Of a DNA stretch of 64,000 nt, positions 10,081-47,897 are shown piece by piece. Origin of the DNA: Candidatus Tayloriibacteriota bacterium (GTDB taxonomy: Bacteria > Patescibacteriota > Minisyncoccia > Phycocordibacterales > PALSA-1337); assembly GCA_028286665.1 (NCBI GenBank), contig JAQBRD010000012.1, positions 841 through 64,840 of the forward strand. The letters run 5' to 3'. The stretch's first letter is position 1. The number at the start of each line of letters is the position of its first letter. The position numbers and the translations under genes were made by a program. The notes under the pieces were generated by a model. That model was not told the origin of the DNA. It did not search any database and was given only the letters and a program-made list of their open reading frames with translations.

Positions 10081-10156
10081 AATCTGCTTATTTTGCTTCA
10101 TTTATCCCCACTTTTTTGCTCAAAAAAGCCGCATTTCCGTGCTAAACTACTGGGGA

Positions 10157-20600: not shown

Positions 20601-21456
20601 CACATGTACCATCGATCCGACGTCGACATCGCTCATCTGTTCGTCCGATCGCCGACTCAAGAAAGATATCGTTTCAATAAATGGCGCAACAGCGCTCGAC
20701 CAGATCAATCAGCTCCAAGCTGTCAATTTCCGATGGAACAATCAATCGACTGATACGCTCCGCTTCGGATTCATCGCGCAGGATTTCGAAAAAGTATTCC
20801 CGCAGCTCGTCCAGACTGACGTCAACGGCTTCAAGAGCGTCGCATACACAGCGCTCACGCCTGTGCTCGCCGAAGCAATCAAGCAGCTTGATGTGAAAGT
20901 GAATGCGCTCACGATAGCGACGAGCACTTCGACTTTGAAGTCCATGATACAGGGCATAGGGGATTGGACTGTCGGAAAGATCACCGGAACAGTCGCGTTG
21001 TTCGGCGACCTGAAGGCCGACGCGCTGACGGTCGGATCGCCATCGAAGCCTTCGGGCATTACGCTGTATGACGGGGTCACCGGCCAGCCGTATTGCCTCA
21101 AGGTGATGAATGGAACAATGCAGAATTTCCCAGGGGATTGTGCAACTCCTACCTCGATTCAGCCTTCAAATCAGCCTTCGACCCCTGGAAACGTCCCTAT
21201 GAGCACTGTTTCCGATCCAAATACCGCAACAACGACAGTTACCACAGCCGGAACCGCTTCATCAGGCGAAACAAGCACTTCTACGGCTCCAGCAGCCACA
21301 TCCACCGAATCGGCAGTTACGACTGAAATAGCCACTTCTACAGCCCAGATGCCTGCACCGGAGCCAGAAATAGCCCCAATTACAGCCACGCCTGATCCAA
21401 CGCCCACACCAGTTTCAGAGCCTGCCGCGCCTGCGCCAGAGGTTCCAGTTCAGTAA
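17680..21456 (+). CDS. Paralogous giant secreted tail-fibre-like protein with C-terminal peptidase S74 domain
   Basis: The N-terminal about 90 aa are homologous to the upstream giant protein. Same repeat families. Gly-rich GGxGG block. The S74 motif SDRRLKKDIVSINGATALDQINQLQAVNFRWNNQSTDTLRFGFIAQDFEKVFPQLV is about 85% nucleotide-identical to the region of gene 1 around 16,740-17,080. A Cys mini-domain and PT-rich tail follow. TATAAT lies 8 nt before the ATG. Confidence 0.8.
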   Translation: MKQRLPNQRWLFALIAFAIALFSISPKISQAYFSDIFKEGASVVMSSTLNGMNAVGKSTIQAFSFESIRSFIPNFINSAASGMNCGVNKIVGAPLPVVCMKNPASVLAAASADAFVPVPMPAHAYVAAVPAPASISKPSSALSSASIPTRLPPPSAPQVSTQTQLTSAEYDAIQQQLANIALGTRSQLIRQTDSTVDHVGQSMSNLATSVASAAANASNAGNITSGVLSVAHGGTGATSTPTFGQVLLGNASGGYDLVSTSSLGITSGASSQWTTSGSNISFIAGNVGIGSSTPIATLSVKGTAGTNPFVVASSTDVQLLTLLQNGSFGIGTSSPVSTLSVAGSGTFTGGASFGGSVGIGTSTPIATLSVKGTAGTNPFVVASSTGAQLLTLLQNGSFGIGTAAPNANAILDVFQGASTTRISRTTTQYIQFTTDGVVNEVRGVSVSGGAKPFRIASDSNSSGLRLFTGTTDKVFIDNNGLVGIGSTTPSALLTLLGSNAATTTLSIRPAASQTASLVNFYDTTGAISSVIAAGGNFGIGTTTPGSKLVVNGDINLTGNIYQNGVLFTGGGGSSQWTSSSTDIYYNTGNVGIGTNSPIYKLDIAGTAHVSSDLTVGGIFTTTAFTANGTATSFNDAITINQSTSSTRFVRPGTPVLQAIDITTDSNSNRIKAFAGPGTNKQFRIEADIGMTGLSLRTGGSERVLIGPSGDVSVGTASTSARFTLMASSSPTYAIFDVTDTSRNSFFKVFGNGFVGIGTTTPSARFALDGFSGADNANASQALAIYGGKGGLNNNATPGGFSGGGIDLFAGPGGDSSGGGVDGGSGGVVNIFGGAGASNGDGTENAGLGGAVNIGAGNGAASLGGGLGGALTLASGNGGNDTASGFGQPGDGGLLSVIAGFGGSSNDNSVNGANGGNVIISGGAPGAGLVAGSYGNIIMNQNGGKVGIGTSTPLYRLHIQRSGDGPVAGFTDANGTCTIDPTSTSLICSSDRRLKKDIVSINGATALDQINQLQAVNFRWNNQSTDTLRFGFIAQDFEKVFPQLVQTDVNGFKSVAYTALTPVLAEAIKQLDVKVNALTIATSTSTLKSMIQGIGDWTVGKITGTVALFGDLKADALTVGSPSKPSGITLYDGVTGQPYCLKVMNGTMQNFPGDCATPTSIQPSNQPSTPGNVPMSTVSDPNTATTTVTTAGTASSGETSTSTAPAATSTESAVTTEIATSTAQMPAPEPEIAPITATPDPTPTPVSEPAAPAPEVPVQ

Positions 21457-28819: not shown

Positions 28820-31800
28820 ATGGCCGCAAATCGGATCTATTCAAAAAAAGCTTTTTTCAGCATATTTCTTTCTGTGCTTATGCCGCTGCTTCTCCTTTCT
28901 GTTCTGATCTCTGATCCGGCAAGTTCGGACGCTGCGGGGGGCTGCGCTCCTTCCATCTATTGGTATAAGACTGGAGCGGATGCGTACTGGACTACGCTCG
29001 CCGGCAATTGGTGGACGGATGAAGCGCATACTTCGCAAGCGTCAGCATTGCCTGCTTCAGGCGCTTGCGTCGGCACTGTTCCTGACAGTGAAATTCCCAT
29101 CGTCGTCGTCGATGACGTTCCTGAGGTATCTACCCTTGCCGGGATAGATGCGACAGCTACAGGAATCATTTTTACGAGCAGCGACGGTGCCTCGTTTCCA
29201 AACATACATTACGAAATTCAAGGCGATGTCACGCTCAAAGGTTCCGTCGTTCTTCAGGGCGAACTTCACGCTGCGGGCACCATCACATTCGATGGTACGA
29301 GCGTCAATCAAGGCTCGCCGGATCGCAATTCGCTCGTGTTCAGCGGAGCGAGCCATAATGAGGCGAATTTTCCTGGAGGCTCCGGAACATTTACGTTCAA
29401 CGGTTCGAGCTACAATACGGGATTTCTCGATGCAGCCTTCGTCACTTTCAATGGTTCGAGCCATAGCGACGGGGGTATTTTCGGCAGCATAACATTCAAT
29501 GGATCAAGCTACACTACTAACCAGATAGCCGGCGGCAGCCATACAATACTCAATACTGATCATTATGGCGGAGTGGTGCCTATCGGCGGCGTGCTCACGC
29601 TCAATGGAAACCAGAATTGGTGGGCAACTGAAGGAGGCAATGCGTATGATTCGAATGATCAGCTGATCACGTCATTCATATTCAACGGATCAAGCTATCT
29701 GCATCAGGATTCACAAGTCAGCGGCGATGCGGTATTCAACGATTCCAGCCATATCGATGGGAGTGTATCCGGCAATGCGAAGATGAACACAGATTATTAT
29801 GGCGGAGTAGTGCCGACCGGCGGCGTGATCACATTGAATGGGACGCAGGTATGGAATGCACCAGTCACCATGATTACGGATTCGAATGATGAACCGATCA
29901 CGTCAATCATTTTCAATGAATCAAGCTATAATGCGGGCACTGTTAATGCCATGGCCGCATTCAATGGCTCCGCGTATAATGCAGGTTACATATACGGCAC
30001 CTCGACCTTCAATGGCGTCAGCTTTAATGGCGCGGGCGGCACTCCTGGTTCGGTAGCGATTTTCAATGCTTCGAGCAGCAACCGGAGCGATGTTATGGGG
30101 GAAGCAACCTTCAATGACTCAGCTTATAATACCGGCAACCTCTATAACACCGCCACATTCAATGCATCGAGCAGCAACCTGTACGGAGCATCGATCTACA
30201 GTCCTGCGACTTTCAATGGTACGAGCTACAATGAAGGCTACATCGAAGCGCTGACGACATTCAATGCATCGAGCAGCAATGCGGGAGGAGGAATTATCAA
30301 TGGCGATGCCGAATTCCATGGTGTGAGCTATAACGGCGGCAGCGTGACCGGCAGCGCGACATTCAACGACTCGACGTATAACATATTCAACGTTGCGGTC
30401 TTGGCGACATTCAATGACTTCAGCCATAATGACGCAGCTACTGATTTTCCTGCTGATGCGATATTCAATGATTCGAGCTTCAATCAGACCAATGCGGTCG
30501 TGTATGGACATGCGACATTCAATGACCTGAGCTATAACCTGGGAACTATCGATTCGGATGCGACATTCAACACGGCATATTACGGGGGAGTCCTTCCTGC
30601 GGGCGGGCTTTTCACGATAGGCGGCGGAAAATCCTGGTACGGCAGCGTTGGAAATATTGCATTCGGTTCAGACGATGCCACTATCACGGCATTCGCATTC
30701 ATGGGAACGAGCACCAACGAGGGCACGGTTTTCGCGACTGTTCCTGCGAATGCGACGACCACCTTCTATGAAGACCTGTCAGAGAACCATGGCATCGTCA
30801 ATGGAACGAAAGTTCGGCGATACACGTCGAACGCCACGACGACCCGCAATTTCATCACCAGCGGTCCTTGGACGGTGATCGCTGACGGGGCGACGGTCGA
30901 TCTTTCCGGATCGAGTTTCAATGCGACGACGACTTTCCGGACTCTGAATGGCGGAGCGTTCGGGGTGCTTTCGACTGCTTGCGCCGCTCCATTGCCAGGA
31001 ACCCTCTCGTACGTCCTCTCCGGGGATATTTCAGGAAGCTGTACTGTAGCTTCGAGCGACGTCACGATCGATGGAAATGATCATGCGATCTCCGGCAATG
31101 TCATCGCCAACGGCATCGCAAGCGGCGCATCCGGTTTCAATCTGAATCTTGCCCGCGTCACGGTCGGCGGCACGGTTTCTTCGAACGGTGCCAACGGCAC
31201 GATCGGAGGATCAGGTGGCACGATCACCATATCCAGTTCGACGGTTGCGGCGGTGAGAGCGAACGGAGGAAATGGAACAGGGAATGGCGGCAACGGAGGA
31301 ATCATCGCACTGGTAGATTCGACGAGTACGGCATTGAGCGCGAATGGAGGCAATAGCTCGAATAACGGAGCGGGAGGTTCCGGCGGCACGATAAGTCTCG
31401 AAAACTCGACATCAACCTCGATCTCGGTCTCTGCGGGAACGGACGGTCCGAATAAGAATCCAGCGCAAGATTCCGGCCATGGCGGCACAAGCCATGCGAC
31501 AGATACCGCGCCTCCGGTCATAACTCTGAATGGAAGCAGCGCCGTCTCGATCGCCTTCGGCGGCACGTATGTCGAATTGGGCGCGACTGCGGTGGATGCG
31601 GTTTCAGGCTCGCGTACCGTGGTCATTTCCGGATCGGTGAATACTGCCGTTGCCGGAGTCTATGTGAAAACATACACTGCTGCTGACGCTGCCGGAAACA
31701 GCGCAAGCAAGACGAGAACGATCACCGTGCGTGCCCAAGCTACAGCAGCCAATACTAATCCTCCAGGAGGAGCTGCGACGCCAGCGCATGCTTCATCGCG

Positions 31801-32515
31801 ATCATCCGGTTCTGCTGCCATGCTTCCGACGCTCAATTTGGCTCCGCTTCCTTCATTCAGCAATAGCGTTTCAAACAATCTCGGAGTCTCGCATCTCGGC
31901 AACCCTCTCGAAGGCCTCAAGGCTTTCAGTTCGCTGAAGCTTTCCACGCTCTCGTTCAAGTTCGTGCCGCAGATCTCGACATTCGTCTTCGCGCCGCTTC
32001 CAGCATCGGTTGCGAAGATACTCGGCAGATCTCCGAAGCTGTCGAACCTCGTCGCATCCGTCGGCGTCTCTCGCGAGCAGGATCTCGTCGCGCTTCTCCG
32101 GAACCCGATCCTGATCCCGAAGCCTGCTGCAGGCGACATTCCGCCAGGACTCTTCATCGCGACTGCCTCCAGCACGCCGCTCGAGCTGTATCTCGCCGGA
32201 GACGCTGAGCATCGTCTTGCGGAACTTGTCCGGACGCAGCCGGGAACTGTTCTCGATATCGCATTCGTGCCGCTGAGCAAGAGCAGCGTACAGGCCAAAT
32301 TCCGCGGCAGCCCGATCAAATTCTTCGCATCGCGCACGGCAGAGGTGCATGCAGTAATCGCTGCTCCTGATGTTCCCGGCAGATATTTCATGACTACTTC
32401 CGCCGCTCCATTTCCGCTCATCATCGAAGTTGTCGCACTGAAGCAGCAGTCTGCGCCGGCGAAGCCTGAGGCGAAAGGGAAGTTCGGCAGCTGGCTGAGC
32501 GGACTGTTTCATTAA
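28820..32515 (+). CDS. Large secreted protein with tandem about 20-aa N-x-S/T-sequon repeats, a Gly-rich block and a DUF5011-like Ig domain
   Basis: Signal peptide. At least 20 units of the form ATFN[GDA]SSYN-G between about 29390 and 30560. A Gly-rich GGxGG region at about 31080-31440. The segment DTAPPVITLNGSS...GATAVDAVSG...YVKTYTAADAAGN...TRTITV matches the bacterial Ig-like DUF5011 pattern. TGCTAAAAT lies 9 nt upstream. Confidence 0.8.
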   Translation: MAANRIYSKKAFFSIFLSVLMPLLLLSVLISDPASSDAAGGCAPSIYWYKTGADAYWTTLAGNWWTDEAHTSQASALPASGACVGTVPDSEIPIVVVDDVPEVSTLAGIDATATGIIFTSSDGASFPNIHYEIQGDVTLKGSVVLQGELHAAGTITFDGTSVNQGSPDRNSLVFSGASHNEANFPGGSGTFTFNGSSYNTGFLDAAFVTFNGSSHSDGGIFGSITFNGSSYTTNQIAGGSHTILNTDHYGGVVPIGGVLTLNGNQNWWATEGGNAYDSNDQLITSFIFNGSSYLHQDSQVSGDAVFNDSSHIDGSVSGNAKMNTDYYGGVVPTGGVITLNGTQVWNAPVTMITDSNDEPITSIIFNESSYNAGTVNAMAAFNGSAYNAGYIYGTSTFNGVSFNGAGGTPGSVAIFNASSSNRSDVMGEATFNDSAYNTGNLYNTATFNASSSNLYGASIYSPATFNGTSYNEGYIEALTTFNASSSNAGGGIINGDAEFHGVSYNGGSVTGSATFNDSTYNIFNVAVLATFNDFSHNDAATDFPADAIFNDSSFNQTNAVVYGHATFNDLSYNLGTIDSDATFNTAYYGGVLPAGGLFTIGGGKSWYGSVGNIAFGSDDATITAFAFMGTSTNEGTVFATVPANATTTFYEDLSENHGIVNGTKVRRYTSNATTTRNFITSGPWTVIADGATVDLSGSSFNATTTFRTLNGGAFGVLSTACAAPLPGTLSYVLSGDISGSCTVASSDVTIDGNDHAISGNVIANGIASGASGFNLNLARVTVGGTVSSNGANGTIGGSGGTITISSSTVAAVRANGGNGTGNGGNGGIIALVDSTSTALSANGGNSSNNGAGGSGGTISLENSTSTSISVSAGTDGPNKNPAQDSGHGGTSHATDTAPPVITLNGSSAVSIAFGGTYVELGATAVDAVSGSRTVVISGSVNTAVAGVYVKTYTAADAAGNSASKTRTITVRAQATAANTNPPGGAATPAHASSRSSGSAAMLPTLNLAPLPSFSNSVSNNLGVSHLGNPLEGLKAFSSLKLSTLSFKFVPQISTFVFAPLPASVAKILGRSPKLSNLVASVGVSREQDLVALLRNPILIPKPAAGDIPPGLFIATASSTPLELYLAGDAEHRLAELVRTQPGTVLDIAFVPLSKSSVQAKFRGSPIKFFASRTAEVHAVIAAPDVPGRYFMTTSAAPFPLIIEVVALKQQSAPAKPEAKGKFGSWLSGLFH

Positions 32516-33123: not shown

Positions 33124-33197
33124 TGCGGGATCATCTAATGGTAGGATAGACGCCTCTGAAGCGTTTCATCTTGGTTCGAGTCCAAGTCCCGCAGCCA
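33124..33197 (+). tRNA. tRNA-Gln (anticodon CUG)
   Basis: Cloverleaf folded by hand. Acceptor TGCGGGA/TCCCGCA with U1-A72 and G73 (Gln identity elements). D-stem ATCT/GGAT with a GG loop. Anticodon stem GACGC/GCGTT with loop CT-CTG-AA. T-arm CTTGG-TTCGAGT-CCAAG. CCA is encoded. Confidence 0.85.
33177..33195 (+). repeat. 19-bp direct repeat, copy 1 (the 3' end of tRNA-Gln), attL-like
   Basis: The sequence cgagtccaagtcccgcagc recurs exactly at 34082-34100. Confidence 0.75.
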
Positions 33198-37902: not shown

Positions 37903-38474
37903 AAAAAATCACCGTATTCAATTTCATAAGTGTCGACGGCTACTACGCGGGACCGAATGACGAGATCGATTGGTTCAAAGCGATCGGCAAGGATGCTGAA
38001 TATGATGCATATACGCATAGCCAGTCGAGCTCGAATCACACGCTCATGTTCGGGCATACGACGTACGATATGATGAAGAGCTTTTGGCCGACGCCGATGG
38101 CGATGGAGAGCGATCCGCATATGGCGAAGATCATGAATGAAAGCATGAAGATCGTCTTCTCGAAAGAGCTGCAGCACTCGGACGATATCCCGGGCTGGGA
38201 CGATGTCATCATCCTCCGCGATATCCGCGCCGAAGAGATCTTGAAGCTGAAGCGGGAATCGGCACATGATATCACGATCCTCGGCAGCGGCAGCATCGTG
38301 CAGCAGCTTTCGAACCTCGGCCTGATCGACAGCTATCAGCTCATGGTCGTTCCGATCGTGCTCGGTGCTGGCAAGAGCCTTTTTGCGAATGCGAAGAGCT
38401 TGAATCTGAAATTGCTCGAGGCGAAGTCGTTCAAGAACGGGGTCGTTTCGCTTCAGTACGAGCCGATGAGGTAG
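37899..38474 (+). CDS. Dihydrofolate-reductase-like protein (RibD C-terminal domain family)
   Basis: ATGA overlap with the previous gene. Segments VFNFISVDGYYAG and ILGSGSIVQQL match the RibD_C fold. Confidence 0.65.
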   Translation: MKKITVFNFISVDGYYAGPNDEIDWFKAIGKDAEYDAYTHSQSSSNHTLMFGHTTYDMMKSFWPTPMAMESDPHMAKIMNESMKIVFSKELQHSDDIPGWDDVIILRDIRAEEILKLKRESAHDITILGSGSIVQQLSNLGLIDSYQLMVVPIVLGAGKSLFANAKSLNLKLLEAKSFKNGVVSLQYEPMR

Positions 38475-38520
38475 ATTCCTGATCAGGAATCCAGAGCTTT
38501 GAAAGCGTGCCTGATATGCT

Positions 38521-40296
38521 ATGCTTCATGCAATACGGCTTATGAAAATATCTCTCGATTCCGCCCGCCATACCAAGCCTTTAGGCTTCTATCTCAAGGT
38601 AAACCGTCAGGACCTCGGCTGGTTCTTTGGCAATGCATCGCTGTATGCGCTCGGTCAGGTCATCATGCTCACGGCGACATACATGCTTGGCAGGACGATC
38701 GACGCGCTCTCGAATGACCCGACGCATGCAAAGTTTTTCGCATGGATGTTCATCGCTTGCGTCGTCGGCCATGAAGTCTCGTGGCGCTTCGGCCATATGT
38801 GCGAAATGCAGATACTCGGACGCATCCGCAGGAATTCGCAGAAGGCATTGTTCGATCACACGACATCGCTCTCATTCGGCTATTTCGCCGATCGTTTCGC
38901 GGGAGAGATCGCGCACAAGATCTCGAGCATCGCTGACAATTTCGAGCGCATGAATATCATCATGACCAACGGCTTCATCGAGGATAGCGTCCTCATTCCG
39001 CTTACCGCTATCGCTCTCGGCATGATCCATTGGTATTACGGAGCATTCGTCATCGTCTGGGGAATCGTCATGATTTTCGGCTCGCGGTTCCTCGCGAAAG
39101 AGATGAACCGCCGCTCAGAAAAGCTCGCTACCGAAGAGGCAAAGACCATAGGCACCATCGTCGATGTCTATGGAAATATCGGCACGGTGAAAGTATACGG
39201 GAAAGCAGGGGATGCGAACCGGGCGCATCTGCAGATAGATGCGGAACGCCGAGCGTATGCCCGATTCGGCTGGTGGGATGTCGTCATGTTCCATTTTCAA
39301 GGATGGTCGATCATCATTTTGTGCTCAGGACTCGTGCTCATCACGAGCATCTTGCACGGTCAGCATGCGATAACGGTAGGACAGATCGTATTCGTCTCGA
39401 CGGCAGGACTTCGACTTTTCAGCATGTCGTGGGAGATGGCACGCAATATCGCCGACTTCATCAGGTATCGCGGCGAATGTTCCCAGAATCTCGCTGATCT
39501 CGTAGTCGCACCCGCGATCATCGACGGCAATCACGCTCAGGCGCAAGGCAAGGAAGCGATCATTGTCCATTACGATCATATCGCATTCGGATATGTCGAG
39601 GAGCGTCCGATACTCGATGATTTTTCAATCACGATCAAGCCAGGCGAAAAAGTGGGCATCGTCGGACTCTCGGGAGCGGGGAAGACGACGTTCGCAAACC
39701 TCCTCCTTCGATTCTTCGATCCGCAATCAGGCACGATCCGCTTCAATGGCACTGATATCCGCAATTTTACCCAGGAATTCCTTCGTTCGCACATCTCGTA
39801 TATCTCACAGGATACATCTCTTTTTCATGCGACGATATCTGAAAACATTGCCTATGGTTCTTCGGCAGCATCTGAGGAGAATATCGAAACAGCTGCCCGG
39901 CTCGCATACGCCGACGATTTCATCATGAAGCTGCCGCACGGCTACAAGAGCATCGTCGGCGAGCGCGGAGTGAAGCTTTCTGGCGGACAACGCCAGCGGA
40001 TCGCCATCGCCCGCGCACTTCTCGCCGATCGGCCGATATTCCTCCTCGATGAAGCGACGAGCGCGCTCGATAGTGACAGCGAAGGGAAGATACAGAAAGG
40101 CCTCTCGATCCTCATGGAGAACAAGACGGTCATCGCCATCGCCCACCGCCTCTCGACGTTGTCTCATATGGATCGGATCATCTTCCTCGAAAATGGAAAG
40201 ATTGCCGAAGACGGAACTCATGAGCAGCTGCTTGCGCAGAAAGGCAGGTATGCCGCACTGTGGCAGATGCAGGCCGGTGGTTTCCTTCCAGCTTAG
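38521..40296 (+). CDS. ABC transporter, fused permease/ATP-binding protein (MsbA-like exporter)
   Basis: Six-helix transmembrane domain. Walker A GLSGAGKTT, signature LSGGQRQR, Walker B IFLLDEATSALD. Confidence 0.9.
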   Translation: MLHAIRLMKISLDSARHTKPLGFYLKVNRQDLGWFFGNASLYALGQVIMLTATYMLGRTIDALSNDPTHAKFFAWMFIACVVGHEVSWRFGHMCEMQILGRIRRNSQKALFDHTTSLSFGYFADRFAGEIAHKISSIADNFERMNIIMTNGFIEDSVLIPLTAIALGMIHWYYGAFVIVWGIVMIFGSRFLAKEMNRRSEKLATEEAKTIGTIVDVYGNIGTVKVYGKAGDANRAHLQIDAERRAYARFGWWDVVMFHFQGWSIIILCSGLVLITSILHGQHAITVGQIVFVSTAGLRLFSMSWEMARNIADFIRYRGECSQNLADLVVAPAIIDGNHAQAQGKEAIIVHYDHIAFGYVEERPILDDFSITIKPGEKVGIVGLSGAGKTTFANLLLRFFDPQSGTIRFNGTDIRNFTQEFLRSHISYISQDTSLFHATISENIAYGSSAASEENIETAARLAYADDFIMKLPHGYKSIVGERGVKLSGGQRQRIAIARALLADRPIFLLDEATSALDSDSEGKIQKGLSILMENKTVIAIAHRLSTLSHMDRIIFLENGKIAEDGTHEQLLAQKGRYAALWQMQAGGFLPA

Positions 40297-40315
40297 TTAA
40301 AAATAATAAAATACC

Positions 40316-40702
40316 ATGAACACCATCGCATATTTCGAAATACAGGCATCTGAACCTACGAAGGCCGTAGATTTCTATGGCGCAGTCTTCGGCTGGAAAT
40401 TCGCGAAGGAAGAACTTGTCCCGATCGAATACTATCGGATGACGGACACCGGCGGCGCAGGTATCATGGGTGCAATTCTCAAGCGTCCCGCAGCGACACC
40501 GCCGCTCGAATGTGGAACGAATGCTTTTACTTGTTCTGTGCAGGTTGAAAGTTTCGATCAGACAGCCGCAGTCATTCTCAAAAACGGCGGCCAGGTCGCG
40601 CTGCCGAAATTCGCCATTCCAGGCCGATGCTGGCAGGGCTATTTCATCGACATCGACCACAATGTCTTCGGCATATTCCAGGCAGACGAGCGTGCGAGAT
40701 AG
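40316..40702 (+). CDS. VOC / glyoxalase-bleomycin-resistance family protein
   Basis: Paired beta-alpha-beta-beta-beta modules (YFEIQASEP...FYGAVFGW). Confidence 0.7.
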   Translation: MNTIAYFEIQASEPTKAVDFYGAVFGWKFAKEELVPIEYYRMTDTGGAGIMGAILKRPAATPPLECGTNAFTCSVQVESFDQTAAVILKNGGQVALPKFAIPGRCWQGYFIDIDHNVFGIFQADERAR

Positions 40703-40740
40703 TGCTTCCATTTTCAGGCGAGATTTGCCATACTTATTAT

Positions 40741-41127
40741 ATGAAACCAAAAACAATAAAAGTCACGTATTGGATCGCAACGGTTCTCTTCGCGCTCTTC
40801 ATGGTATTCTCGGGAGTTTCTGAACTCATGATGACTGAAGAAGGAAAGCAGATCATGATCCATCTCGGATATCCGATCTACATGCTGTACATGCTCGGCA
40901 TCGCGAAGATCCTCGGCACGATCGCGCTTCTGCAGACGAAGTATCAGGTCATCAAAGAATGGGCGTACGCCGGTTTCGCGATCGATATTCTCAGTGCTTC
41001 CATTTCAATGTTTTTCGTGGGAGATAATGTCGGCTTGTCTCTCATGCCGCTCATCTTCCTCGTCGTCATGTTCATCTCGTACGGCTTCTGGAAGAAAATG
41101 GAACGGTTGAAGACTGCATCCGTGTAA
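40741..41127 (+). CDS. DoxX-family membrane protein
   Basis: Four-helix, 128-aa DoxX-like hydrophobic protein. Start trimmed to ATG 40741. Confidence 0.6.
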   Translation: MKPKTIKVTYWIATVLFALFMVFSGVSELMMTEEGKQIMIHLGYPIYMLYMLGIAKILGTIALLQTKYQVIKEWAYAGFAIDILSASISMFFVGDNVGLSLMPLIFLVVMFISYGFWKKMERLKTASV

Positions 41128-41160
41128 TGATGCATTTATTCTGTCGGCCTCTTCGTATTC

Positions 41161-43803
41161 ATGGATACGACCGCCAGCAGACAACCTTTTCTTGTCGACG
41201 TGCTCGGCAGAAGGCAGAAAATCCACTTGCGGGTTCTCATAACTCTCTGGCTGTTGAGCGTATCCGCATTCTGGATCTGGTGGCTGTCACCGCTGCATAT
41301 GGGAGACATGGCAAGGTTTGCGATAAACACCGTCATCCTGGCATGGAATTCGCTGCTGCCCGGTTTCTATTTTTATTTCCTGAACCGGATGAAGAAGCAG
41401 AATCCGGATCTGAAGATTCCTCGGCATTGGAGGATCGCCATGGTCGTCACCCGCGCTCCGTCGGAGCCTTTCGAACTCGTGAAGAAGACGCTCATCTCCA
41501 TGAAATTGCAGGACTTGCCGCATGATACGTGGTTGGCTGACGAGGATCCTACTCTTGAAATACGAGAGTGGTGCGCGAAGCACGGAATATGCATCTCGAC
41601 ACGCAAAGGGAATGCCGAATATTATCAGCAGAATTGGCCGAGAAGGGAGAAGTGCAAGGAGGGCAATCTCGCCTATTTCTACGATCATTACGGCTATCGG
41701 AGATATGATTTCGTGTCGCAGCTCGATGCGGATCATGTTCCAAGTCCGGGCTATCTGCATGAAATGATCTTGCCGTTCGTCGATCCGAAAGTCGGGTACG
41801 TTTCGGCGCCGAGCATATGCGATGTGAATGCACAGGGAAGCTGGGCCGCCCGCGGGCGGCTTTTCGCCGAGGCGACGCTTCACGGAACGCTTCAGGCCGG
41901 ATACACCAATGGCTGGGCGCCGCTTTGCATCGGCTCTCATTATGCGGTGCGCACGGAAGCGCTGAGCGAAATCGGAGGACTCGGCCCGGAGCTCGCCGAA
42001 GATCATTCGACCACGCTCATGATGAATGCCTTCGGCTGGAAGGGAGTCCATGCGCTGAATGCTGAAGCGCATGGCGATGGCCCGACCACTTTCATGGATT
42101 CGATGACGCAGGAATTCCAGTGGGCGAGGAGCCTCGTCATGCTCCTGCTTACAGTCACTCCGGGATGCTGGAAGCGCCTCACTCCGAAATTCCGATTCCA
42201 GTTCATTTTCTCGCAGCTCTGGTATCCTATTTTCGGAGTACTGATGCTTGCGGCATACATGTCTCCGCTGGTAGCGGTCATGACCGGCGTACCGTGGGTG
42301 CATATTTCATATATTCAATTTCTCGCCTATTCTTTCTTTCCGTTCACGACCGCTCTGCTCGTCGTCGCTTGGGTGAGGAGACAGCATCTGATGCGTCCGG
42401 CCGATGTGAAAATATTGAGCTGGGAAGGCGCAATCTTCCAGCTCGTCCGATGGCCGTGGGTGCTATGGGCGACATGCGATGCTATCCGCACTGCGGTCTT
42501 CAAGAAGAAATGCGTCTGGCGCATCACTCCCAAGGGCCGAGTCGAAGAGGTCGCGATTTCCCTCAAGGCAATATGGCCGTACGCATCGATAGTCTGCCTC
42601 TCCGGCCTGAGCGTGCTTCTCGCGGTGAGGAACCCTGAGATAAAGGGATATTACTGGTTCGCCTTCATCAATTGCTTCGCATATCTCGCCTGCATCGGGA
42701 TCATCATCGTCCGGCATGTGTTCGAAAATAAGATAGCGATGAATTTCAGGAACGTTTTCCTGCGATGGGGGAAACATCTCGTCATGATGCTCATCCTGAT
42801 GTTCCTCACCGGCTCGGCAGTGTACGTGCATGGAGAAGACGCGTGGAGCGGAATCACTTGGAATAGCGGCTCGATCCTCAACTGCCGGAACTTTTCTTCC
42901 ATCTGCGAGCTCGGCGGGACGACGACGCTGGTTGCTGAAAAGAATCGCATCGGATTCGGCGCATACGATCCATCGGAAGTCTTTCAGGGCAAGCAGTTGG
43001 CCATCGAGCACGTATTCATTTCCTGGAATTCGTATGGGAAAGGCAGCATCGCGCGCGATCTCGCTGGAATCGAAGGCCGCGGAAGAGAGCCGCTTCTGAC
43101 CATCGAGCCGTGGCTGGATCCGTCGGTGAGCAGCAGCACGGATGTGCTGAGCGATGTCGCAGCCGGAATATACGATAGCAAGATCAATGACATGTGTTCT
43201 GAAATAGCAGCTTCCGAAGCTCCCGTATTCGTCCGTTGGGGACATGAAATGGAAACGATAAGCAACCGAAGCCGTTATCCGTGGGCAGTCGAAGATGCGC
43301 CGAAGTATCAGCGGGCGTATCGGCATTTCGTAGAGCAATGCAGGGCAAGCGCGAAGAATGTCCTCTATGTCTGGTCGCCGGCTGGAGATAAGGGTTTGGA
43401 AAGATATTGGCCTGGCTCCGAGTATGTCGATTCCGTCGGAATCTCTATCTATGGATTCCCGGAGTGGGATCTGCATTATTTCAAGAAAGTCCGCTCATTC
43501 GCGGAGATAATGAAGGAAAAATATGCCCGAGTCGAAAAGTATCGGAAGCCGATAATGATCGCGGAGCTCGGCGTGGCAGGCGACAAGGCGCATCAGCTCA
43601 CATGGATGCTCATCGCGCTCGACGAGCTGCGCGGCTTTCCGCTCGTCACGAATGCGGTATATTTCAATTCTCTGGATAATCCGAAGGCTTGGGGCGATGG
43701 CTATTCGACGCCGGACTGGAGCATGGATCCGAAAGCCTTTCCCACGACGATGCCGATCACTGCGCCGATGATCGCTCCTGCAGCGAACTCCGAGAACCAG
43801 TGA
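41161..43803 (+). CDS. Fusion protein: processive family-2 glycosyltransferase (cellulose-synthase-like, QxxRW) with transmembrane region and a C-terminal GH26-like glycoside hydrolase domain
   Basis: GT2 motifs (D...QLDADH... and QEFQWARS, the QxxRW motif). At least six transmembrane helices. In the C-terminal domain, VRWGHEME and IMIAELGV match the GH26 acid/base (HE[MF]N) and nucleophile (ITELG/D) motifs. Confidence 0.75.
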   Translation: MDTTASRQPFLVDVLGRRQKIHLRVLITLWLLSVSAFWIWWLSPLHMGDMARFAINTVILAWNSLLPGFYFYFLNRMKKQNPDLKIPRHWRIAMVVTRAPSEPFELVKKTLISMKLQDLPHDTWLADEDPTLEIREWCAKHGICISTRKGNAEYYQQNWPRREKCKEGNLAYFYDHYGYRRYDFVSQLDADHVPSPGYLHEMILPFVDPKVGYVSAPSICDVNAQGSWAARGRLFAEATLHGTLQAGYTNGWAPLCIGSHYAVRTEALSEIGGLGPELAEDHSTTLMMNAFGWKGVHALNAEAHGDGPTTFMDSMTQEFQWARSLVMLLLTVTPGCWKRLTPKFRFQFIFSQLWYPIFGVLMLAAYMSPLVAVMTGVPWVHISYIQFLAYSFFPFTTALLVVAWVRRQHLMRPADVKILSWEGAIFQLVRWPWVLWATCDAIRTAVFKKKCVWRITPKGRVEEVAISLKAIWPYASIVCLSGLSVLLAVRNPEIKGYYWFAFINCFAYLACIGIIIVRHVFENKIAMNFRNVFLRWGKHLVMMLILMFLTGSAVYVHGEDAWSGITWNSGSILNCRNFSSICELGGTTTLVAEKNRIGFGAYDPSEVFQGKQLAIEHVFISWNSYGKGSIARDLAGIEGRGREPLLTIEPWLDPSVSSSTDVLSDVAAGIYDSKINDMCSEIAASEAPVFVRWGHEMETISNRSRYPWAVEDAPKYQRAYRHFVEQCRASAKNVLYVWSPAGDKGLERYWPGSEYVDSVGISIYGFPEWDLHYFKKVRSFAEIMKEKYARVEKYRKPIMIAELGVAGDKAHQLTWMLIALDELRGFPLVTNAVYFNSLDNPKAWGDGYSTPDWSMDPKAFPTTMPITAPMIAPAANSENQ

Positions 43804-44390
43804 ATGCTCATCGAGACGCCGAAGCCGATATAGAAAGCATAGAGCAATGCGCCGCATCGCGCGATAGCGCGCTGCCGAGCGCTCGCGCTTTTCGGATAGA
43901 CATATATGAATGCGAAAGCCATGGCGAAGGCGATCGTCGTGTGCGATGACGGCCAGCCCCAGAATACGCCGTGCTTCAGCAAGCCGAAATTAAAATTGCC
44001 GCTGATGTCGGTGATGACGTTATGGATATCCGGCTGCACTCTGCCGGTGAGGGCTTTGTATGCGGATGAAATGACCGAACCGATGATCGCTGCTTGCGCA
44101 AGCGCATATCCGGCATTCAGTGCAGCGGTTGATCCCGATGCGCGCTTCCGCAGCCAGCCGATCGCGAGCATGCAGATCGGCACTATGATCGGAACAAGTC
44201 CGCCGATAACGACCGCAGGGAAGAATATGCGATCGAGTCCGCTGCTTCTCGTTGCAAGGAAATATTGCCAGTCGAAACCGCTCGCCACGATGATATAGGT
44301 GAGCGCGATCGCAGCGAGATGCCATGGCAGATTGCGCATTGAGAAGCAGCGGATGATATTTCGGGGAAGCGAATAGAGGAATCTTTTCAT
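43701..44390 (-). CDS. PAP2-family phosphatase (membrane)
   Basis: PAP2 motifs KALTGRVQP, PSSHTT and SMSIHWFSEF. Its 3' end overlaps the convergent GT2-GH26 gene by about 100 bp. Confidence 0.7.
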   Translation of the reverse strand: MKRFLYSLPRNIIRCFSMRNLPWHLAAIALTYIIVASGFDWQYFLATRSSGLDRIFFPAVVIGGLVPIIVPICMLAIGWLRKRASGSTAALNAGYALAQAAIIGSVISSAYKALTGRVQPDIHNVITDISGNFNFGLLKHGVFWGWPSSHTTIAFAMAFAFIYVYPKSASARQRAIARCGALLYAFYIGFGVSMSIHWFSEFAAGAIIGAVIGIVVGKAFGSMLQSGVE

Positions 44391-44404
44391 TAGGCAAGTA
44401 TAGC

Positions 44405-44440
44405 AACAAATAAAAAACTTCCAGCCGGGATGGCGGGAAG
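44405..44440 (-). terminator. Rho-independent terminator downstream of the tRNA-like gene (- strand)
   Basis: On the - strand: CUUCCCGCC-AUC-CCGGCUGGAAG followed by UUUUUU. Confidence 0.6.
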
Positions 44441-44600
44441 TGGTGCAGGAGGCGGGAATCGAACCCGCATGGATGGGGGGTCACACCCTTTGAAGGAAGC
44501 TAGAAGAAGTAGTCAAAAACCTTCATCGGTAGCAATTTAGCCGTCCCGCTTGCGCGTGCATCAACGCAGTTGATGTGCTCTGCCGTTAAGCTACTCCTGC
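44441..44600 (-). tRNA. tRNA-like gene with an 85-nt insertion (intron-containing or disrupted tRNA; anticodon uncertain, candidate UGC)
   Basis: On the - strand, the 5' half is canonical: GCAGGAG-UA-GCUU-AACGGCA-GAGC-A-CAUCA-ACUGCGU-UGAUG, with U8, A9, A14, G18G19, A21 and A26. The 3' half is canonical too: GCGGG-UUCGAUU-CCCGC-CUCCUGC-A-CCA, and the acceptor strands are perfectly complementary. The halves are 85 nt farther apart than in a standard tRNA. Confidence 0.5.
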
Positions 44601-44679
44601 ATCTTCCATGGAAACATACCCTACGTGTAACTATATGTCAATGGATATCATTGAGTAAGCTGCCTGCTATAATGAGCCG

Positions 44680-45723
44680 ATGAAACAGATCCTAAAAAGC
44701 GCATTTGTATTGCTTGCCATCGCGACCTTCTTCCGCATCAGCGTTCCGCAGGTTTCAGCTCATGAGGTATATGTACTCGATCATTCAGAAATAAATACCG
44801 CCATGCAGGCGCCGCGTCCCGATTTCATGCAGAGCATGCGGGATCACCTCGGACAGTTCATCGTATGGGGCCTGATCTTCACGATCCTGATTCTCATTGT
44901 CTTCTACGTATCGATAAGCCGTCCCATCGAGCGCCTCATCGATCCTGCGCTCATGTATCTGAAGAAATTCGCTCCGCACGTAGCTCAGGCGACCCTCGGC
45001 CTCGCGCTCATGGCAAGCGGCTACTATCATGCGGTCTTCGGAATCGAAATTCCGCTCGGTCCGACATTCGGCTCGCTCGAGCATCTCGTCTCATTCTGCC
45101 TCATCGTCGCCGGCGCGATGCTCGCGTTCGGGCTTTTCCCCCGGATCGCAGCGATGTTCACGGTCGCGTTCTTCATCGGCCTCGCAGTCCATTTCGGAGC
45201 ATACATGCTCAATTACGCGACGTATCTCGGAGAAGCGATCACCATCGCGATCTTCGGCGGGGCGCATACGATCTTCGCGAATAAGCGGCTGTCGCAGATC
45301 GCTGCGCGAGTCATCAGTCCTTCATTTCATGCGTACAAGTTCCTGATCATGCGCGTCCTTTTCGGGTCCTCGCTCATCTATGCCTCGGTATATGCGAAAT
45401 TCATCCATGGCGCGCTCGCGCTCGAAGTCGTCTCGAAATACAATCTGACGCATTATTTCCCGTTCGATCCGGTCTTCCTCGTGCTCGGCGCGATGCTCAC
45501 CGAAATACTCCTCGGAGTCTGCTTCGCGATCGGATTCGAGATTCGCTTCGCTTCGCTTTTCTTCCTCGCATTCCTCTCGATGTCGCTCGTCTTCTTCGGT
45601 GAAGCTGTCTGGCCGCATATCATCCTCATCGGAACTGCGCTCGCCATGTTCCTTCACGGATATGATCGCTTTACATTCTCTGTGCAGATGGAGAAGGACA
45701 AGAGCCTCGAGCCGGTGCTCTAG
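44680..45723 (+). CDS. Hypothetical polytopic membrane protein with signal peptide
   Basis: Signal peptide plus about eight transmembrane helices. TGCTATAAT lies 6 nt before the ATG. Confidence 0.6.
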   Translation: MKQILKSAFVLLAIATFFRISVPQVSAHEVYVLDHSEINTAMQAPRPDFMQSMRDHLGQFIVWGLIFTILILIVFYVSISRPIERLIDPALMYLKKFAPHVAQATLGLALMASGYYHAVFGIEIPLGPTFGSLEHLVSFCLIVAGAMLAFGLFPRIAAMFTVAFFIGLAVHFGAYMLNYATYLGEAITIAIFGGAHTIFANKRLSQIAARVISPSFHAYKFLIMRVLFGSSLIYASVYAKFIHGALALEVVSKYNLTHYFPFDPVFLVLGAMLTEILLGVCFAIGFEIRFASLFFLAFLSMSLVFFGEAVWPHIILIGTALAMFLHGYDRFTFSVQMEKDKSLEPVL

Positions 45724-45787
45724 CGAGAAAGTCCAGCTCTGGATAACTCGCGTGTACGTTTCCTTGCGAATAGGCTATACTTATCTC

Positions 45788-46563: not shown

Positions 46564-47199
46564 ATGTCATTTCGCATTCGTGTGAGATGTAGTACTATGG
46601 ATCTCATGAAGAAGACCTACGAAATCCTCGGCGAAATGCTCAAGCTCAATCCATCGATCACGCACCTCTGCCTGCGGCTGTACGAAAGCAAGACCGGTCT
46701 CGCTGCGACGCATGACGATGCGTTCCGGTATGAATGGATCAGCACTGATCTCGCCTCGGATGTTTCAGAAATCAGCGCGCTCATATCTGAGTTCGAAAAG
46801 GAGGGCTGGACAGTCGGCCTTGCGAGCATGGTCATGACGACCGAGGGCATCATGCACCTGCTCATGCTCGACTATCTCGTCGCGCCATCGGCCAATGCTG
46901 AAGGCGATCTCGCGTGGAAGCTCTCGACCTTCAATCAGAGCGGCGACGTGAACTATCGAATGGACGGCTATCTCATACGAACGAAGAATTCATATCATTA
47001 CCTGAGCAAGTACATCACGACCGAAGCGAATTTCATCAACTTCCTCGGCAGCGCGCTCTTATTCCGGCATTCTGAAGAAGGCGAGTCGCACATCGTCGAT
47101 GACATCTGGCTCGGCCGATCCATCAAGCGGCGTTTCGGCACCATCCGCCTCGGCAAAAAAGAAGGAATCTATCCCACGGTCGCAAGCGAGGTGAAATGA
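46564..47199 (+). CDS. Hypothetical protein
   Basis: 211-aa ORF with no recognisable motifs. An alternative start is at 46597. Confidence 0.45.
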   Translation: MSFRIRVRCSTMDLMKKTYEILGEMLKLNPSITHLCLRLYESKTGLAATHDDAFRYEWISTDLASDVSEISALISEFEKEGWTVGLASMVMTTEGIMHLLMLDYLVAPSANAEGDLAWKLSTFNQSGDVNYRMDGYLIRTKNSYHYLSKYITTEANFINFLGSALLFRHSEEGESHIVDDIWLGRSIKRRFGTIRLGKKEGIYPTVASEVK

Positions 47200-47319
47200 A
47201 TTATTCTGAATTGAAATACTGAAACTGTCGAGTTGTGGATAACTGTTTGCATTTCAATCGTCAAAGAGTAGACTGTATTCAGTATATTTTCCCTGTTCTT
47301 CAAAGAAGAATATTTGTCA

Positions 47320-47428
47320 GTGGTCGTGGATTTCGGTGCGGGTCAGTCAGCGCGCTTCGAAATCCACGACCACTTCAGACATTTCACGTTAGTGAGATTG
47401 CGACTGAAAGGGTCGTGGAAAAAACAAG
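47320..47428 (+). promoter_or_regulatory. Structured 5' leader with a 16-bp perfect inverted repeat and alternative-pairing GGTCGTGG/CCACGACC elements
   Basis: GTGGTCGTGGATTTCG (47320-47335) pairs with CGAAATCCACGACCAC (47358-47373). A third GGTCGTGG copy at 47411-47418 could pair instead with CCACGACC. The ATG of the downstream gene is at 47451. Confidence 0.4.
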
Positions 47429-47450
47429 TAGTTGCGGTGTTTCAAATACA

Positions 47451-47897
47451 ATGAAAACGTTAATTCCACGGCATAGCCTATCCTCGCGAATGCGAGGAAG
47501 CGGCTTGTTTGCCTCGATAGTCGCTATCGCGATATGTGGCGCATTTGCCACCCAGACCGTCCAAGCTTCGCCTCCGCAGACATCTCATGGAAGTGCTGCG
47601 CAGATGGTCGCTTCGGCTCCGTCAACAACGCTTGTCGCGAATGATCGGCTTGTTGCCTCAGAACCGCCAGTGCTCGTCGATTCCGATCAGTTCGGATCGA
47701 TCACCCAAATCGCGAGTATCATTGCGAGTCCTCAACGGCAAAATTCCGCCGTGACGACTATCGGACATGCATTATTGACCGCCACCGGCTCGGATTGCGT
47801 TGCTCAAGCCACGATCGGCATTGATCAATCGTTTACCACTGCAAAGGAGGTTGTTGGGCACGACCACGAATCGGTAGGTCAGATTCTCGCATCCTGA
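47451..47897 (+). CDS. Secreted hypothetical protein
   Basis: Signal peptide MKTLIPRHSLSSRMRGSGLFASIVAIAICGAFATQTVQA. Ser/Ala/Thr-rich mature region. Confidence 0.55.
   Translation: MKTLIPRHSLSSRMRGSGLFASIVAIAICGAFATQTVQASPPQTSHGSAAQMVASAPSTTLVANDRLVASEPPVLVDSDQFGSITQIASIIASPQRQNSAVTTIGHALLTATGSDCVAQATIGIDQSFTTAKEVVGHDHESVGQILAS

Follow-up and report, generated by a model that had tools for sequence, protein, structure and literature searches.

What kind of gene has both halves of a canonical transfer RNA (tRNA), with perfectly matching acceptor strands, yet twice the usual length? This question is raised by a 160-nucleotide (nt) gene on the minus strand of contig JAQBRD010000012.1 (assembly GCA_028286665.1) of a Candidatus Tayloriibacteriota bacterium, a member of the Candidate Phyla Radiation (CPR; Patescibacteria). 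The whole stretch of 64,000 nt that was analysed is referred to as the window. Six proteins encoded in it are identical to proteins of a metagenome-assembled genome labelled Candidatus Taylorbacteria bacterium, and SecA, MurB and GatB confirm that the host is bacterial. The initial annotation of this DNA offered three explanations, namely an intron-containing tRNA, a tRNA disrupted by an insertion or integrase scar, and a tRNA-like structural RNA. The last of these proved the best fit. We read the element as a tRNA-like gene that is transcribed on its own, does not decode, and has a variable region expanded in its lineage only, and assign this reading a probability of roughly 45%. The evidence that was observed comprises the anatomy of the gene, its transcription signals, the lack of intron, tmRNA (transfer-messenger RNA) and mobile-element signatures, and its presence or absence among relatives.

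Infernal matched the gene to the Rfam tRNA family RF00005 with 41.4 bits over 44444-44600 (model positions 1-71; gathering score 29; E = 2.3e-5 computed for the whole window), and assigned the extra bases to the variable region. In this Rfam comparison, which the initial annotation had proposed, neither a tmRNA nor an intron family was matched. The element thus has a cloverleaf with a 7-bp acceptor stem, a D arm and a GUUCRANYC T arm that scores above the Rfam threshold. All 21 stem pairs are standard, the tertiary-contact bases U8, A14, G18, G19 and A21 are all kept, and the conserved bases of the D and T loops are unbroken. The acceptor strands form a perfect 8-nt inverted repeat (I2), and the minimum-energy fold of the 160 nt recovers the arms of the cloverleaf. 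The initial annotation had the 160-nt span and the excess of ~85 nt right, while its start of the T arm (44475) was 7 nt off; the arm starts at 44468. In size the gene departs from a canonical tRNA, which has a variable region of 4-5 nt or a class II stem-loop of at least 10 nt and a total length of ~70-95 nt, as compared with 90 nt and 160 nt here. Because a 5-bp stem with a 7-nt loop at exactly tRNA positions 27-43 is improbable by chance (~0.007, our own estimate), the insert lies 3' of a genuine relic of the anticodon arm, where the initial annotation had put it. The sequence recurs, insert and all, at 100% identity across 6.6 kb in a second assembly (Logan, run SRR13312974; L001), so that an assembly error is unlikely; this run is possibly the source of the metagenome-assembled genome (MAG) itself.

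The anticodon region is where the gene departs from a decoding tRNA. A canonical anticodon loop of 7 nt stays open, with U33 and with a purine as its base 37; this gene instead has the loop ACUGCGU, in which A32-U38 and C33-G37 are able to pair. The anticodon arm is a perfect 7-nt inverted repeat (I3), and in the minimum-energy fold it closes to 7 bp with a UGC triloop, as the initial annotation had foreseen when it called the loop atypical. That annotation also correctly noted the missing G3:U70, since pair 3:70 is A:U and the gene therefore lacks this hallmark of tRNA-Ala. C33, a closing loop and A3:U70 rule out that the gene is a normal decoder or encodes an alanine tRNA. Removal of the insert would not create a true anticodon arm, as had been suggested, because the loop would still be ACUGCGU with C33. 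In its default mode, ARAGORN did not call the gene; its sole call within the window was a tRNA-Gln at 33124-33197.

The gene is bracketed by its own transcription signals. The promoter-like site upstream matches the consensus at 10 of 12 positions, with a perfect -35 box. Downstream, the U-rich terminator reported in the initial annotation was borne out as a bulged hairpin followed by U6 (-13 kcal/mol, z = -4.6), which was equalled by none of 200 shuffled sequences; a simple consensus terminator scan overlooked this hairpin owing to its bulges. Both neighbouring genes, which encode a DoxX-like membrane protein and a PAP2 phosphatase, have an extended -10 box (TGcTATAAT/TGcTATACT) exactly 6 nt before their ATG and lack a Shine-Dalgarno sequence (DoxX-like gene, 44665-44682, plus strand, TGCTATAAT; PAP2 gene, 44388-44408, minus strand, TGCTATACT). 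Since the neighbours have their own boxes, the tRNA-like gene forms a separate unit and is not a leader of either of them. The position of the boxes suggests that the DoxX-like and PAP2 mRNAs are leaderless. The box of the PAP2 gene is kept (L002 95-116) in the closest PAP2 locus that we fetched, L002, where the PAP2 protein is 73% identical and the DNA ~80%.

In mechanistic terms, the gene would be a tRNA paralogue that keeps the parts for making and folding the RNA, i.e., the promoter, the 7-bp acceptor, the D and T arms, A73, CCA and the terminator. Codon reading and charging as tRNA-Ala would have been lost with C33, the hairpin-closing loop and the A:U pair at 3:70, while the variable region would have gained ~85 nt of poorly structured sequence, seen in the lineage of the window only. 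RNase P would presumably trim the transcript. Once folded into its putative L shape, the RNA would project the extra segment from the side of the variable arm, like a class II tRNA. The insert may be tolerated since the variable-arm face of a tRNA is permissive. Any action of the RNA would proceed via its tRNA shape, for instance as a stable tRNA-like scaffold or as a decoy for tRNA-binding proteins. Indirect support for a putative functional RNA is provided by the promoter and terminator signals and by two related genes with two compensatory changes, a number too small for statistics. The coordinates of all features are given in Table 1.

Table 1. Coordinates of the tRNA-like gene, its parts, its surroundings and the odd tRNA-like genes of related loci. 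Positions refer to the window unless a locus is named.
Feature	Position	Strand	Remarks
tRNA-like gene	44441..44600	-	160 nt with encoded CCA; RF00005 match and cloverleaf arms in minimum-energy fold
Acceptor 5' strand GCAGGAG	44600-44594	-	Followed by U8 and A9; direct reading
D arm GCUU-AACGGCA-GAGC	44591-44577	-	Stem strands 44591-44588 and 44580-44577, loop AACGGCA
A26	44576	-	Direct reading
Anticodon-arm relic CAUCA-ACUGCGU-UGAUG	44575-44559	-	5-bp stem, 7-nt loop ACUGCGU with C33
Variable region (holds insert)	44558-44469	-	90 nt, ~85 nt above class I tRNA; placed there by Infernal
T arm GCGGG-UUCGAUU-CCCGC	44468-44452	-	Direct reading and Rfam alignment
Acceptor 3' strand CUCCUGC	44451-44445	-	Followed by A73 at 44444 and CCA at 44443-44441
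Promoter-like TTGACA-17-TATGTT	44613..44641	-	-35 box 44641-44636, -10 box 44618-44613; 12 nt before mature 5' end
Intrinsic terminator	44412..44441	-	Hairpin 44441-44417 from last CCA base; final pair uses first U of U6 at 44417-44412
PAP2 phosphatase gene	43701-44390	-	Downstream of tRNA-like gene, same strand
DoxX-family membrane protein gene, 347 amino acids (aa)	44680..45723	+	Upstream, divergent; weak Pfam DoxX match
Left junction of 1.3-kb block	45732..45746	-	TTATCCAGAGCTGGA, imperfect direct repeat of CCATCCCGGCTGGA
L127 tRNA-like gene	L127 1837-1917 (= L128 1020-1100, L129 487-567)	-	81 nt; ARAGORN 'tRNA-Ala(GGC)'
L131 tRNA-like gene	L131 568-652	-	85 nt; ARAGORN 'tRNA-?(gcag)'

The initial annotation had further asked for a comparison with orthologous loci, which gave a mixed picture: the PAP2 locus of L002 lacks the gene, and the nearest DoxX-like loci have other non-canonical tRNA-like genes, without the insert. 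The closest homologs of the DoxX-like protein (~70% identical) occur in Patescibacteria, in a context of genes for DNA-alkylation repair, the DoxX-like protein, a protein with a tRNA-binding domain and an FAD enzyme. Two of the three lineages with this context have an aberrant tRNA-like gene on the opposite strand, at a distance of 70-95 nt upstream of the DoxX-like operon. Infernal scored these genes, in L127 and L131, at 51.9 and 49.9 bits, respectively, with a 5-bp anticodon stem, a variable loop AGGUY, and anticodon loops of 11 and 15 nt that have the motif GCUACA in common. Both genes have a perfect TTGACA ~40 nt upstream, end in A73-CCA, and are followed by a terminator ~45 nt downstream. 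Across the fetched loci, only 21 of 1057 tRNAs were odd according to ARAGORN, and four of these 21 are the genes just described. Because odd tRNAs are this rare, it is unlikely to be a coincidence that two lineages have one beside the same operon.

Between L127 and L131, the DoxX-like proteins are 83% identical and the surrounding DNA 73-77%, as compared with ~91% for the tRNA-like gene. Two compensatory changes were found, from G1-C72 to A1-U72 and from U-A to C-G in the anticodon stem, and the tertiary pair 15:48 changes in step from A:U to G:C. One T-stem A-C mismatch is newly present in the gene of one relative. The alternative fold that ARAGORN proposed for L127 is broken in L131, as judged by inspection. 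The pattern of changes suggests that the tRNA architecture of these two genes is maintained without a normal anticodon loop. A covariance model built from L127 and L131 matches every tRNA and aligns the window element implausibly; as it could not serve to count pairs across the three genes, the pairs were tabulated by hand.

On balance, the window gene is probably akin to the genes of L127 and L131, as indicated by gene order and their common 'non-decoding' character. Like them, it lies by a DoxX-like operon, has its own TTGACA and A73-CCA, shares the acceptor pairs 5-7 (G-C/A-U/G-C), and combines intact D and T arms with a non-canonical anticodon region. Unlike the window gene, they carry their extra bases in the anticodon loop, have the normal variable loop AGGUY and a D loop of 9 nt, and are separated from the terminator by a trailer of 45 nt, and their similarity to the window gene is no higher than that of ordinary tRNAs (L127 ranks 49th and L131 114th of 834 tRNAs). 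The known set of such tRNA-like genes is three copies, with an extra length of +4, +8 and +85 nt.

Several results weigh against the interpretation as a non-decoding RNA with an expanded variable region. The insert, in which a small hairpin (CGC-GCAA-GCG) and a stretch rich in C and U can be recognised and whose 3' end is C-rich, is no stabler than shuffled sequences when its 85 nt are folded alone (z = +0.5). Its complementarity to 91 start regions in the window was matched by 43 of 60 shuffled inserts. No significant similarity was found between the insert and the loops or trailers of the L127 and L131 genes, and no insert-bearing homolog was found, which is weak evidence, as the large scans were poorly targeted and mostly caught tandem tRNA arrays. 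The abnormality is also placed differently, in the variable region of the window gene and in the anticodon loop of the L127 and L131 genes. In the covariance model of L127 and L131, the window element scored 35.7 bits, below many ordinary tRNAs; orthology is therefore based on gene order alone. The covariation between these relatives concerns two sequences only, and 95 of 500 shuffles reached the observed value. Furthermore, the absence of a tRNA-like gene in L002 and L132-L139 implies that it is dispensable. An insert without structure, homologs or targets and a patchy distribution fit a relic equally well. Two alignments of the insert with the relatives were rejected: MAFFT placed GCUACCGAUGAAGGUU with the 3' strand of their anticodon arm and their variable loop, and UUUGACUAC resembled their trailer, but local alignment was non-significant in both cases (p = 0.2-0.9).

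The locus itself differs between relatives. L002 passes directly from the homolog of window 45816-45734 to the start of PAP2; relative to L002, the 1.3-kb block made up of the tRNA-like and DoxX-like genes is hence an indel. The sequence at its left junction, TTATCCAGAGCTGGA, recurs imperfectly as CCATCCCGGCTGGA at 44433-44420, in the loop and 3' arm of the terminator, and L002 has a single copy, TTATCCGCAGCTGGGGA. This imperfect repeat of 13-15 nt is marginally above chance (p ~0.05, our own estimate). The short direct repeats D1 to D3, also near the tRNA-like gene, do not exceed chance expectation in a similar estimate. A second indel relative to L002 lies at window 38424-41172 (L002 3341-3450), where genes for an ABC transporter and a DoxX_2 protein and a small open reading frame (ORF) separate the glycosyltransferase gene of the window from sequence to which it is directly joined in L002. 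The locus is variable in gene content.

The main rival explanation is a pseudogene, i.e., a dying tRNA paralogue that perhaps moved with the DoxX-like gene and took an 85-nt junk insertion and loop mutations, with its signals still undecayed. We regard this as the less probable account, although it deals easily with an insert that is unstructured, unique and without homolog or targets, with an unusable anticodon loop and a pair 3:70 that is not G:U, and with the A-C mismatch in the T stem of one relative's copy. The 1.3-kb block is moreover lacking in the nearest relative, and the locus is rearranged compared with the DoxX-like context of L127, L131 and L132. However, none of the 21 pairs is broken and no invariant base is lost, which argues against long neglect, and the -35 box is perfect and the terminator strong. 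CPR genomes of ~1 Mb are tightly packed, which also speaks against a pseudogene. If L127 and L131 represent the same gene lineage, the odd loop and the kept stems even span proteins that differ by 17-30%. Alternatively, the 85 nt could be a CPR-type intervening sequence that is removed, with or without rejoining of the halves, by the poorly understood processing that acts on ribosomal RNA (rRNA) genes, leaving an RNA of ~75 nt. In many cases, an insertion in a CPR rRNA gene is a group I or II intron or bears a homing-endonuclease gene. According to PMC9297842, which cites Brown et al. 2015, insertions of at least 100 bases occur in 42% of CPR 16S rRNA genes and 77% of their 23S counterparts and average 623 and 1232 bases per gene, respectively; the transcripts were predicted to lack most of them. 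Because CPR rRNA genes are often interrupted, an interrupted stable-RNA gene is less surprising in this group, and the differing extra length of the three tRNA-like genes would suit a variable insertion. These rRNA insertions are found in the same organism group and likewise vary between close relatives (PMC9297842), but the window insert is only 85 nt long, lies in a tRNA-like gene and has no intron signature. Within 44300-44750, no Rfam family besides tRNA was matched even at E <= 10, including group I and II introns, ribozymes, tmRNA and Y-RNA-like families. Inspection of the fold revealed no helix joining the ends of the insert and no archaeal bulge-helix-bulge (two 3-nt bulges, 4-bp helix), for which no dedicated motif search was made. 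The sole 'intron' model was a chance product: in its intron mode, ARAGORN called a 'tRNA-Leu(CAA) + 77-nt intron', yet calls of the same kind appeared in 345 of 400 controls (86%) with the middle 107 nt shuffled, so that this model carries no information. At a relaxed threshold, the intron mode gave spurious calls in other loci too. Moreover, the product would keep C33 and the closed loop, and inspection identified no single-segment removal that gives a 7-nt loop with U33 and purine 37 in both L127 and L131. A review's remark that CPR tRNA genes are also affected comes without data, and the accessible paper that it cites covers only a 23S rRNA intron; in the searchable literature we found no primary description of tRNA insertions or tRNA-like RNAs in CPR. 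The intron proposed in the initial annotation thus lost its support, and an intervening sequence of any kind seems quite unlikely.

It is still less likely that the gene is a recombination scar or attachment site, i.e., a tRNA remnant at the edge of a mobile block of the tRNA-like and DoxX-like genes inserted between IspA and PAP2. In its favour are the 1.3-kb indel with its flanking repeat, single in L002, and a gene for an archaeo-eukaryotic primase (AEP)-like protein 2 kb off. Yet the repeat would look the same if the L002 lineage had simply lost DNA by deletion between short repeats, the junction repeat is marginal, and the other short repeats are at chance level. The neighbouring ORFs that were scanned against Pfam include no integrase or transposase, and besides the AEP-like primase no mobile-element genes were seen near the tRNA-like gene. 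An integration scar typically consists of part of a tRNA, copied from its 3' side, rather than of a full cloverleaf with an internal insert, and the window contains no significant repeat of the tRNA halves. The insert also lacks the marks of a MITE-like (miniature inverted-repeat transposable element) insertion: no second copy was found in the 64-kb window or ~1 Mb of fetched loci, and no terminal inverted repeats were found around it. Of the disruption by an insertion or integrase scar that the initial annotation considered, the gene may represent a relic, but the insert is unrepeated and the integrase and significant repeats are missing from what was scanned. Finally, the gene might be a miniature tmRNA-like or dual-function RNA, whose tRNA-like domain delivers a reading frame in the insert or whose CU-rich segment pairs with mRNAs. 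The insert is unstructured, as a messenger or seed region would be, and contains a frame of nine codons including the stop (AUG AAG GUU UUU GAC UAC UUC UUC UAG). Nevertheless, this reading is close to refuted. ARAGORN detected no tmRNA even at relaxed settings, and no tmRNA family of Rfam beats tRNA; G3:U70 is missing, a full anticodon arm is present, no pseudoknots are apparent, and the pairing of the insert with the start regions of the window is no better than that of shuffled inserts.

The favoured reading, a non-decoding tRNA-like RNA, can be compared with several known systems. Variable regions of class II tRNAs form a defined stem-loop and seldom exceed ~25 nt. Like the window gene, class II tRNAs (Leu, Ser, Tyr, Sec) have extra nucleotides between the anticodon and T arms, a gap known as the place that tolerates an added arm, with a variable loop of at least 10 nt (PMC7609411). 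In contrast to them, the window gene has 90 nt without a stable arm, a class I D arm and an unusable anticodon loop. Group I introns of bacterial tRNAs interrupt the anticodon loop, have a length of at least ~200 nt and are recognised by the group I family of Rfam. The tRNAs that carry them (tRNA-Leu(UAA), tRNA-fMet, tRNA-Arg(CCU) and tRNA-Ile) are likewise interrupted bacterial tRNA genes, but the window insert is 85 nt, lies in the variable region and has no such match. tmRNA also has tRNA-like ends (acceptor stem, T arm and CCA) around a long internal segment; it differs from the window gene by its G3:U70, its lack of an anticodon arm, its pseudoknots and its tag frame. Another parallel is 'tRNA-Other' of Bacillus cereus, a non-translating pseudo-tRNA for which a structural role has been proposed, as a tRNA-like element that forms part of a longer RNA (Rogers et al. 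2012, PMC3399842). Both are chromosomal, tRNA-shaped and non-decoding genes in a variable, island-like locus. However, tRNA-Other is no larger than a normal tRNA and its extensions are external to the cloverleaf, whereas in the window gene the variable region itself holds the extra RNA; the two genes come from unrelated organisms and are not related in sequence, and the window gene is known from its sequence alone.

If the RNA is made and kept, a tRNA body can bear an appendage of ~90 nt in its variable region, and the reduced genomes of the CPR hold tRNA-shaped RNAs for non-decoding use. The gene would then join the unusual stable-RNA genes of the CPR, next to the rRNA insertions, and offer a natural tRNA scaffold with a passenger sequence. 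Broader versions of this idea are conceivable but unlikely: the gene could belong to a Patescibacteria family of non-decoding tRNA-shaped RNAs, in which the acceptor, D and T arms are selected and the anticodon and variable side is free, or the 85 nt could be a non-group-I intervening sequence cut from a tRNA-type transcript. Either architecture is apparently undescribed for bacterial tRNA genes, as far as found in the searchable literature. If the gene is a relic, rearrangement at a variable locus would have left it behind in an ordinary way, and it would mainly be a warning for the tRNA annotation of MAGs, as Infernal calls a tRNA here and ARAGORN does not.

Some features of the wider neighbourhood may be mentioned. 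The PAP2 gene (minus strand) and a gene for an 880-aa GT2/GH26-like protein (plus strand, 41161-43803) converge with an overlap of ~100 nt (43701-43803), as they do in L001 and L002. The AEP-like gene and the 220-aa ORF without a Pfam match that follows it span 46564-47897. Elsewhere in the window, three ORFs are very large (10139-17611, 2490 aa; 17680-21456, 1258 aa; 28820-32515, 1231 aa), of which those of 1258 and 1231 aa are without an NCBIfam match.

Relatives of the gene were also sought more widely. Eight further contexts of DoxX-like homologs had no tRNA-like gene, or no DNA to inspect. In viral contigs, the exact 5' and 3' halves, a split pattern and the L127/L131 signature all gave no match. 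The split pattern (D arm, 87-117 nt, T arm) gave four matches in metagenome contigs, all of which were adjacent tRNAs in tandem arrays. A looser version gave at least 120 loci in genome contigs; the candidates examined were tandem tRNAs or partial duplications, and the remaining matches among those listed lacked acceptor-strand complementarity. The source MAG was not among the listed matches. This looser pattern is unselective because the distance from a D arm to the T arm of the next tRNA is about the same as the distance inside the window element. Similarity to ~830 tRNAs of the fetched loci, a set biased by the search pattern, pointed to no clear parent isoacceptor.

A few other odd tRNA loci emerged from these searches. 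A 1698-bp contig of a Nanoarchaeota MAG (L093, reverse-complement 1033-1163) has tRNA-like halves ~100 nt apart with the complementary acceptor strands CUCCACG and CGUGGAG. It was rejected as a relative, being archaeal and below the Rfam tRNA threshold; ARAGORN does not call it either. A large or non-canonical intron in an archaeal tRNA may account for it. Two Patescibacteria MAGs (L017, reverse-complement 4681-4806; L039, 1012-1164) have an incomplete tRNA copy (Asn, Ala) that comprises the 5' 26-34 nt and precedes the intact gene by 40-50 nt. A long helix between the leader and the 3' end plus trailer also encloses the intact tRNA; AAUCCCUCCUCCUGGCU, for instance, pairs with AGCCAGGAGGAGGGAUU. 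Cyanobacterial loci within L011-L116 (e.g. L041, L052, L074, L082 and L092) contain arrays in which ARAGORN reported 2-base 'anticodons' or tRNAs of 75-99 nt, and these are probably pseudo-tRNAs of cyanobacterial tRNA clusters.

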